A stretch of DNA of 39,777 nt from a virus (IMGVR_UViG_2537562191_000049); one strand, 5' to 3'. Counted from the first letter of the stretch, positions 6,164 to 6,352 are shown. Notes: generated from the sequence alone by a model not told the origin. A program made the numbers and translations.

Positions 6164-6352
6164 GTGAAGAAAAAATTTGTAAACGTTGCAAAGTGCGCAA
6201 TTTTTATATTTTTTATGACCTTTTACGGATTTAGTGCCGGAGAAGGTTTCGATCGTGATGCCAATGCATTCAGTTTCTTTTGTCTGTCTATAGTGGTCAT
6301 AATTGTATGGGTGGAATTAAAGCAAACATTGTTTCATGTGCTAAGGAAATAA
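6164..6352 (+). CDS. Small predicted membrane protein (62 aa, two hydrophobic segments) co-transcribed with the CI-like gene
   Basis: GTG start 5 nt after strong SD aaggagg; 60 nt downstream of the CI-like stop with no terminator between; lies in the P22 sieA position between gp16 and the ant operon. Confidence 0.5.
   Translation: MKKKFVNVAKCAIFIFFMTFYGFSAGEGFDRDANAFSFFCLSIVVIIVWVELKQTLFHVLRK

Follow-up and report, generated by a model that had tools for sequence, protein, structure and literature searches.

Among the described systems, the one closest to the locus considered here is SieA of phage P22 (PF26849, with types A, B and C), a predicted inner-membrane protein of 160-210 aa with three to four transmembrane (TM) segments whose exclusion function has been demonstrated (PMC10883804). 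SieA carries a conserved cytoplasmic FxRYPxEAxxFNK motif, and mutations in gp16 and gp20 allow phages to escape its action; an upstream segment of 85 bp is enough in P22 for both SieA expression and exclusion, and only about a third of the sequenced P22-like phages have SieA (PMC10883804). The gene is part of the ant moron, which is known as a variable slot in rapid flux with cargo of non-identical functions (PMC2629481). In this moron sieA is the last gene, convergent to gene 16 and about 20 nt away from it.

Two other groups of small phage membrane proteins invite comparison. Class II holins and pinholins, for example S21 of phage 21, are about 60-70 aa long and have two TM segments, an N-in/C-in topology and a basic C-terminus. 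HK97 gp15 is a moron located within the virion gene cluster. Like T4 Imm, gp15 is a small phage inner-membrane protein that stops the DNA entry of related phages (PMC11436027, PMC10883804).

The stretch of DNA that we analysed (the window, 39,777 nucleotides) is a P22-like (Lederbergvirus) prophage, and positions 6164-6352 lie in its "ant moron"/immI segment. Escherichia phage JEP4 is about 99% identical to the window, and a prophage of E. coli UTAK-8 is 100% identical to it over a 993-base test segment. The features of the segment, numbered from the first letter of the window, are as follows.

Left of 5462, minus strand: an arc-like RHH gene, two antirepressor-type genes, a 73-codon ORF and the tailspike gene
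5462-6103, plus strand: gene for a 213-aa repressor of the CI/LexA fold (the CI-like gene), at the Mnt position and divergent from the arc-like and ant genes
6100-6128, plus strand: sigma-70 promoter-like site TTGATA-17-CATTAT from a consensus scan, the positional equivalent of P22 PsieA
6126-6163, plus strand: sieA-type leader CATCTGGTATCCTGCTCAAAACTAAGGAGGTTAGT, including the Shine-Dalgarno sequence (SD) AAGGAGG at 6152-6158, from alignment to P22-like phages
6164-6352, plus strand: ORF62 (phrog_21338), 62 codons with a GTG start
6353-6369, no strand: the 17-nt junction between the ORF62 and gp16 stop codons, with the conserved CCATCCATGGC at 6353-6363
6370-8235, minus strand: gene for the ejection (DNA transfer) protein of the gene 16 type, the final late gene ahead of the ant moron and convergent with ORF62
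Ending at 6370, minus strand: the late genes for gp7, gp20 and gp16

The original prediction described a 62-aa hydrophobic ORF with a strong SD that begins 60 nt after the CI-like gene, no terminator intervening, and it placed both genes opposite to the late genes, between gp16 and the ant operon, where P22 has sieA. The sequence and the gene map agree on all of these points. The ORF62 start is 60 nt past the stop codon of the gene encoding the 213-aa HTH_3 plus Peptidase_S24 protein, the SD is 5 nt before the GTG, zero terminator-like sites are predicted in the gap, and the leader, the SD and the GTG start are all held in common with sieA.

ORF62 is a real, conserved gene. All eight of its distinct nucleotide variants have an open 62-codon frame with zero indels, their pairwise dN/dS values are 0.14-0.42, and the synonymous excess is significant or borderline for three pairs of the window and a homolog (Fisher p = 0.006-0.054). 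Every other reading frame of the region contains stops. The start codon changes from GTG to ATG, at the same codon, in the Serratia and the remote homologs. The protein matches the phrog_21338 profile from end to end (E = 5.3e-45, residues 1-62 on positions 1-62 of 62). A word-indexed search found homologs of 62 aa and 77-81% identity in Salmonella and Serratia, and the remote members of the family, which were located via exact-protein look-ups, have 32-52% identity and 61-66 aa, with one exception that is an over-extended 98-aa call. Residues K10, F14, M18, G22 and W49 are invariant in the family, and S37, F38, E51 and K53 are nearly so.

The family is small. An exhaustive HMM search of 1.84 billion representative proteins produced only 12 clusters, with members in P22-like prophages only, and a scan of the GTDB genomes with the family alignment produced a single locus, in Serratia fonticola. 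ORF62 is present in three isolated phages and in 89 of the 5426 complete E. coli genomes; tblastn with the remote homologs against isolated phages returned the same three and no others. The exact protein occurs on 761 contigs, where its name is always "hypothetical protein", and the gene is unannotated in the three phages (JEP4, phiv205-1 and UPF_BP1) as well as in RefSeq for the three E. coli genomes inspected. Searches of Pfam (E <= 0.1), NCBIfam and PADLOC with ORF62 gave zero matches, and none of the PADLOC-DB defence-protein models matched at E <= 0.1. A literature search found no description of the ORF62 family, of the leader that it shares with other genes or of the envelope bias of the cargo described below.

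We predict that ORF62 is an inner-membrane hairpin of two helices with an N-in/C-in topology, because the same charge and hydropathy pattern, with basic termini and an acidic loop, is found in all eight of the family members examined. The Kyte-Doolittle profile of ORF62 has hydrophobic segments at residues ~5-19 (KD 1.9) and ~36-50 (KD 2.8), and the charges are +3 at the N-terminus, a net -2 in the loop and a net +2 at the C-terminus; the predicted periplasmic loop, GEGFDRDAN, is acidic. An AlphaFold2 model made from a shallow alignment has helices at residues 3-24 and 29-61 with a mean pLDDT of 71. Foldseek comparison of the model with BFVD gave only generic helical hairpins and none at E <= 0.001; one weak, non-significant match is annotated as a holin.

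The constant association of ORF62 is one of position. In every P22-like locus with an ORF62 homolog that was examined, the end of the gp16 gene is 10-45 nt from the ORF62 stop codon, and ORF62 is always the last plus-strand gene and convergent with gene 16. Homologs of 38-52% identity occupy the same slot, also convergent, 10-18 nt from gp16. In four metagenomic P22-like contigs (L028-L031, 38-41% identity) ORF62 is the sole gene between the tailspike gene and gp16. However, the same ORF62 allele occurs beside gp16 types of 621, 637/655, 722 and 785 aa, and because the gp16 type varies in this way, ORF62 gives no indication of having co-evolved with a target among the ejection proteins.

The 38-nt leader before ORF62 is nearly identical to those ahead of P22 sieA, epsilon34 gene 14 and Emek orf129, and homology to the window begins at 6126 for phiv205-1 and at 6146 for UPF_BP1. 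In 611R6 only the core AAAACTAA is in common with the ORF62 leader. The leader is found in 170 of the 5426 complete E. coli genomes. The -35 element of the promoter-like site overlaps the stop codon of the CI-like gene and, when aligned to P22, lands in the annotated sieA promoter segment, 31-61 nt before the sieA start. The scan found no excess of promoter-like sites in the region over shuffled sequence, and upstream of the remote homologs the promoter candidates, which were picked by eye, score below the scan threshold. From this alignment we consider that ORF62 probably has its own PsieA-like promoter in the 60-nt gap. Since no terminator is predicted between the two genes, read-through from the CI-like gene into ORF62 is possible, but it is probably not required, given the PsieA-like promoter in the gap.

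On the other side of the gene, an 11-nt motif, CC(A/G)TCC(A/T/G)TGG(C), stands directly 3' of the stop codon in most of the family members examined. It is present, for example, in the loci L008, L013, L019, L027 and L030, the last with a homolog of 38% identity, and absent in L028. The motif also directly follows the stop codon of P22 sieA (L007), before the gp16 stop, with coding sequences on the flanks that differ. It could be a mini-hairpin (GCCA-TCCN-TGGC) or a recombination joint. In L030 the motif was scored within a weak hairpin, and folding of the 3' junction gave a non-significant z of -1.2. Downstream of ORF62 there is no canonical terminator; there are the mini-hairpin, which is weak and conserved, and another hairpin within gp16. 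In L028, a phage with a minimal moron, a terminator-like hairpin and T-run for the late strand (4846-4867, minus strand) lies directly ahead of the start codon of the tailspike gene, where it is antisense to the ORF61 promoter region.

How does ORF62 compare with SieA? It lies in the gene 16/gene 9 interval, adjoins gene 16 and follows the PsieA leader, with an aligned promoter region, so the two genes use the same slot, and both products are predicted inner-membrane proteins. However, ORF62 has 62 aa and two TM segments, as opposed to the larger SieA with its three or four, and it is a candidate by position, whereas the function of SieA is established. The two proteins are also unrelated in sequence. 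BLASTP of ORF62 against P22 SieA gave E = 0.27, Pfam gave no match to PF26849 at E <= 0.1, and the FxRYPxEAxxFNK motif is absent from ORF62. The BLAST likeness pairs YGFSAGE--GFDR, from TM1 and the loop, with the C-terminal FGRYPGEANGFNK of SieA; a comparison by hhalign of the ORF62 family profile with eight type A SieA sequences gave a probability of 0.3% and aligned another region, and we therefore reject homology and regard the likeness as chance similarity of TM segments. The 41 phage records with SieA and the three phages with ORF62 do not overlap, and SieA is absent from the 28 ORF62 loci in which it was sought and from the whole window.

These observations place ORF62 in a site that is used by many other genes. 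A scan of IMG/VR for the leader gave at least 120 loci (L033-L152), from which the first ORF behind the leader was translated and the resulting 118 proteins were grouped into families by BLAST. Unrelated cargo families behind the leader number at least 13, and among the matches listed 115 of the 118 proteins have a hydrophobic segment at their start, in the form of a TM segment, a signal peptide or a lipobox. The families and the number of loci in which each stands behind the leader are as follows.

129-aa signal-peptide protein (Sf6 gp38-like): at least 23 loci
TM plus coiled-coil proteins of 107/109 aa (epsilon34 gp14 / hkcB-like): at least 21 loci
161-aa lipoprotein: at least 13 loci
Second TM plus coiled-coil family, 109 aa: at least 12 loci
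ORF62: at least 11 loci
SieA, 164/212 aa: at least 9 loci
75-aa multi-TM protein: at least 7 loci
116-aa four-TM protein: at least 5 loci
99-aa secreted protein: at least 5 loci
149-aa TM protein: at least 4 loci
140-aa soluble protein: at least 3 loci
103/106-aa TM protein: at least 3 loci
68-aa secreted protein: at least 2 loci

SieA is the sole characterised cargo among these leader-linked families. The other ant-moron cargo (epsilon34 gp14, the HK620 hkcB-like, Sf6 gp38-like, lipoprotein and multi-TM proteins) resembles ORF62 in its leader and position, in being targeted to the envelope and in being swapped between otherwise similar phages (PMC2629481). It differs from ORF62, the smallest of them, in sequence, and ORF62 is the only one that, in divergent phages, occurs with no other gene between the tailspike gene and gp16. 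Like other morons, ORF62 is present or absent among syntenic relatives and lies outside the morphogenesis and lysis genes; other P22-like phages have different cargo, or nothing, in its place. A moron, as an independently expressed and non-essential gene within a phage operon, would also have a promoter and a terminator of its own; for ORF62 the former is a promoter-like site, and a canonical terminator is lacking. ORF62 is an independently exchangeable moron cassette of P22-like prophages, and we have high confidence in these statements on its anatomy.

Some loci contain stacked cassettes, each with an SD of the GGAGGTT type, for example the lipoprotein and ORF62 in L008 and the lipoprotein and the four-TM protein in L049. 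An obligatory operon of the lipoprotein and ORF62 was considered and rejected; ORF62 does not follow the lipoprotein in 13 IMG/VR loci among the matches listed. In five Serratia prophages (L019-L022 and L026, ~5644-5991) a gene of the Rap1a family (PF18602) ends 1-9 nt upstream of the ORF62 homolog. Rap1a is a family of type VI secretion system (T6SS) immunity proteins, and this neighbour suggests a prophage-borne, orphan T6SS immunity. A Fic-domain gene, a ClpP-like gene and a HicA/DUF1902 (HicB-like) pair are found near ORF62 homologs in L027 (1410-1883) and L012 (3898-5019).

What does ORF62 do? The reading that we prefer is that it is a minimal, non-homologous analog of SieA. According to this model, ORF62 would be transcribed in the lysogen from the PsieA-like promoter, possibly with a contribution of read-through from the CI-like gene, and translated by means of the conserved sieA leader and SD. 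The protein would insert into the cytoplasmic membrane in the predicted N-in/C-in orientation, with only the short acidic loop exposed to the periplasm. There, at the inner membrane, it may hinder the DNA-delivery conduit that gp7, gp20 and gp16 of a superinfecting P22-like phage would form; alternatively, its target may be a membrane factor of the host on which the conduit depends. T4 Imm and HK97 gp15 would be counterparts in kind only, as neither has a sequence relationship to ORF62, whose one PHROGs match is phrog_21338.

We infer the exclusion role because SieA, the one characterised occupant of the slot, excludes phages, and for this reading from position we would give a probability of roughly 0.4-0.45. 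Several observations count against it. ORF62 is implicated through its position, by the slot that it shares with SieA, and the same moron has Rap1a-like, Fic and HicAB-type genes close by, which are not injection blockers. The promoter predictions for ORF62 are weak, it matches nothing in PADLOC, Pfam or NCBIfam, it lacks both homology to SieA and the SieA motif, and it shows no co-variation with the gp16 type. A wider proposal would be that ORF62 is a new exclusion family of 62 residues and that the leader and the junction at the end of gene 16 delimit a swap-in site for at least 13 envelope cassettes, most or all of them with a role in exclusion or defence; we hold this to be doubtful.

If ORF62 and its sister cassettes do act on incoming phages, the interval between gene 16 and the tailspike gene would be a compact hotspot, easy to recognise, of anti-phage determinants that act at the envelope in prophages of Escherichia, Salmonella and Serratia. 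A hairpin of 62 residues would also be a very tractable probe of the way in which the gp7/gp20/gp16 conduit passes through the inner membrane. There is an annotation aspect as well, in that ORF62 was overlooked when the three isolated phages with this gene were deposited. One of them, JEP4, was isolated for a biocontrol cocktail (PMC8425383), and unrecognised exclusion genes are relevant to the choice of such phages. Should ORF62 have no exclusion phenotype, it would be an ordinary moron. The cassette site defined by the leader may outweigh ORF62 itself as a result.

Of the other explanations, the one that survives best, although we think it unlikely, is that ORF62 is a small membrane protein of lysogenic conversion that has no part in defence. 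Many bacterial small membrane proteins modulate transporters, sensor kinases or envelope processes, and ORF62 might do the same to an inner-membrane transporter, a sensor kinase or an envelope process of the host. The flux of the slot and the non-identical functions of its cargo would fit such a role (PMC2629481), and the neighbouring Rap1a-like T6SS immunity and Fic genes point to host fitness beyond phage exclusion. However, one would look for a general modulator of the host in phages of other types and in other genomic contexts too, whereas the ORF62 family, with its few representative clusters, is confined to P22-like phages and prophages and stands beside gene 16 even at 38% identity.

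Less likely still is a membrane-active effector of abortive infection, or a toxin-like protein, in which a hairpin similar to that of a holin or pinholin would depolarise or permeabilise the membrane upon superinfection or induction. ORF62 does resemble the class II holins in its size, its predicted N-in/C-in topology with two TM segments and its basic C-terminal tail, and the weak Foldseek match to a protein annotated as a holin goes in the same direction but is not significant. In addition, transcription of the late operon through gene 16 is antisense to ORF62, which could tie its expression to the state of the phage. On the other hand, searches of Pfam, PHROGs, NCBIfam and PADLOC matched ORF62 to no family of holins, toxins or defence proteins, and the gene runs opposite to the late operon and lies outside the lysis cassette; the window has a separate holin-lysin-Rz cassette elsewhere, with a holin of its own, and neither the context nor the homology of ORF62 is that of a holin. 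Hundreds of genomes carry ORF62 constitutively, with a strong SD and no obvious antitoxin. No antisense-RNA family was detected by an Rfam scan of 3000-6600, whose sole match was a sub-threshold symR inside the ant gene region.

Very unlikely, in our opinion, is the arrangement proposed in the original prediction, in which the CI-like gene and ORF62 would form a dedicated, co-transcribed, two-gene module for exclusion or abortive infection. The part of that proposal that stands is the small two-TM gene in the sieA position; the pairing with the CI-like gene does not, as conserved co-occurrence was found neither in the contexts of the homologs nor in the distribution among E. coli genomes. The pairing did have some attraction, with its 60-nt gap free of predicted terminators and its recurrence in JEP4, in E. 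coli UTAK-8 and in the Salmonella loci L013, L017 and L018. However, the CI-like gene is upstream of ORF62 in at most 14 of the 89 complete E. coli genomes that carry ORF62, and in E. coli HB37 an identical CI-like protein (WP_001008290.1) is followed by a different TM protein of 106 aa. Conversely, ORF62 is located behind many different genes, or none. It follows the gene for the 213-aa CI-like protein in the window, L013 and L017 and the gene for its 286-aa relative elsewhere, and the other genes found upstream encode a Mnt-like RHH protein, the 161-aa lipoprotein, a Rap1a-like protein and a Fic protein.

The two genes also have different histories. Between the window and L013 the CI-like gene has 96.4% nucleotide identity, with one amino acid change, but ORF62 has only 88.4% nucleotide and 81% amino acid identity; this difference in divergence implies a recombination (mosaic) joint in the leader. 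Furthermore, because the CI-like gene is at the Mnt position and divergent from arc and ant, it suggests control of the antirepressor and not of ORF62. The co-occurrence in L018, where the context is of the siphovirus type, was considered as a sign of an independently mobile module and set aside, as its 2.76-kb block is a recent copy of L013 with 99.5% identity, gp16 fragment included. The block (4046-6801) consists of an ant fragment, an arc-like gene, the CI-like gene, ORF62 and 600 nt of the 3' end of gp16, and it is flanked by a siphovirus-type tail-tube/DUF6246 gene and a tape-measure gene. L018 is either a recombinant or insertion between prophages or an assembly chimera. A dedicated functional pair is thus largely refuted, and the CI-like gene is left as a possible source of read-through transcription into ORF62.

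Finally, the short, AT-rich sequence of ORF62 and its missing annotation in the phages and RefSeq genomes could lead one to believe that it is not a functional gene, and that a reading frame has arisen by chance in a conserved spacer, or 3' region, which lies between gene 16 and the immI genes and does not code for protein. This can practically be discounted, as frame and length are kept in homologs of 38-97% identity, no dN/dS value reaches 0.45, amino acid replacements are conservative with hydropathy and charge pattern maintained, start codons are swapped at one and the same position, and the strong SD is likewise retained.

The immunity region to the left of ORF62 displays some features of its own. 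A Mnt-like RHH gene (JEP4_19; window ~3179-3436, plus strand) is located between the last ORF of the ant operon and the tailspike gene, convergent to the former and divergent from the latter, whereas the usual position of a Mnt-like gene is opposite arc. The control region between the divergent arc-like and CI-like genes (5363-5461) has a promoter-like site, TTGACT-17-AATAAT, on the minus strand. It also contains ACTCA/TGAGT half-sites in several copies, among them the palindrome ACTCAGTATGAGT, recognised by eye; these are candidate operators.

The CI-like protein itself has the Pfam domains HTH_3 and Peptidase_S24, and its best PDB matches are lambda CI and the 434 repressor. At residues ~126-130 it reads EGEAM where lambda CI reads EGNSM, with Ala for the catalytic Ser149, while the Lys (in FKQV) is retained. 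Because Ala stands where lambda CI has Ser149, the protein is probably a non-autocleaving, SOS-insensitive repressor, one that functionally replaces Mnt at the arc/ant promoter. The immC C2 repressor encoded elsewhere in the window (31686-32405) has EGDSM, and the 286-aa immI relative of the CI-like protein (L015) has QGDSM.
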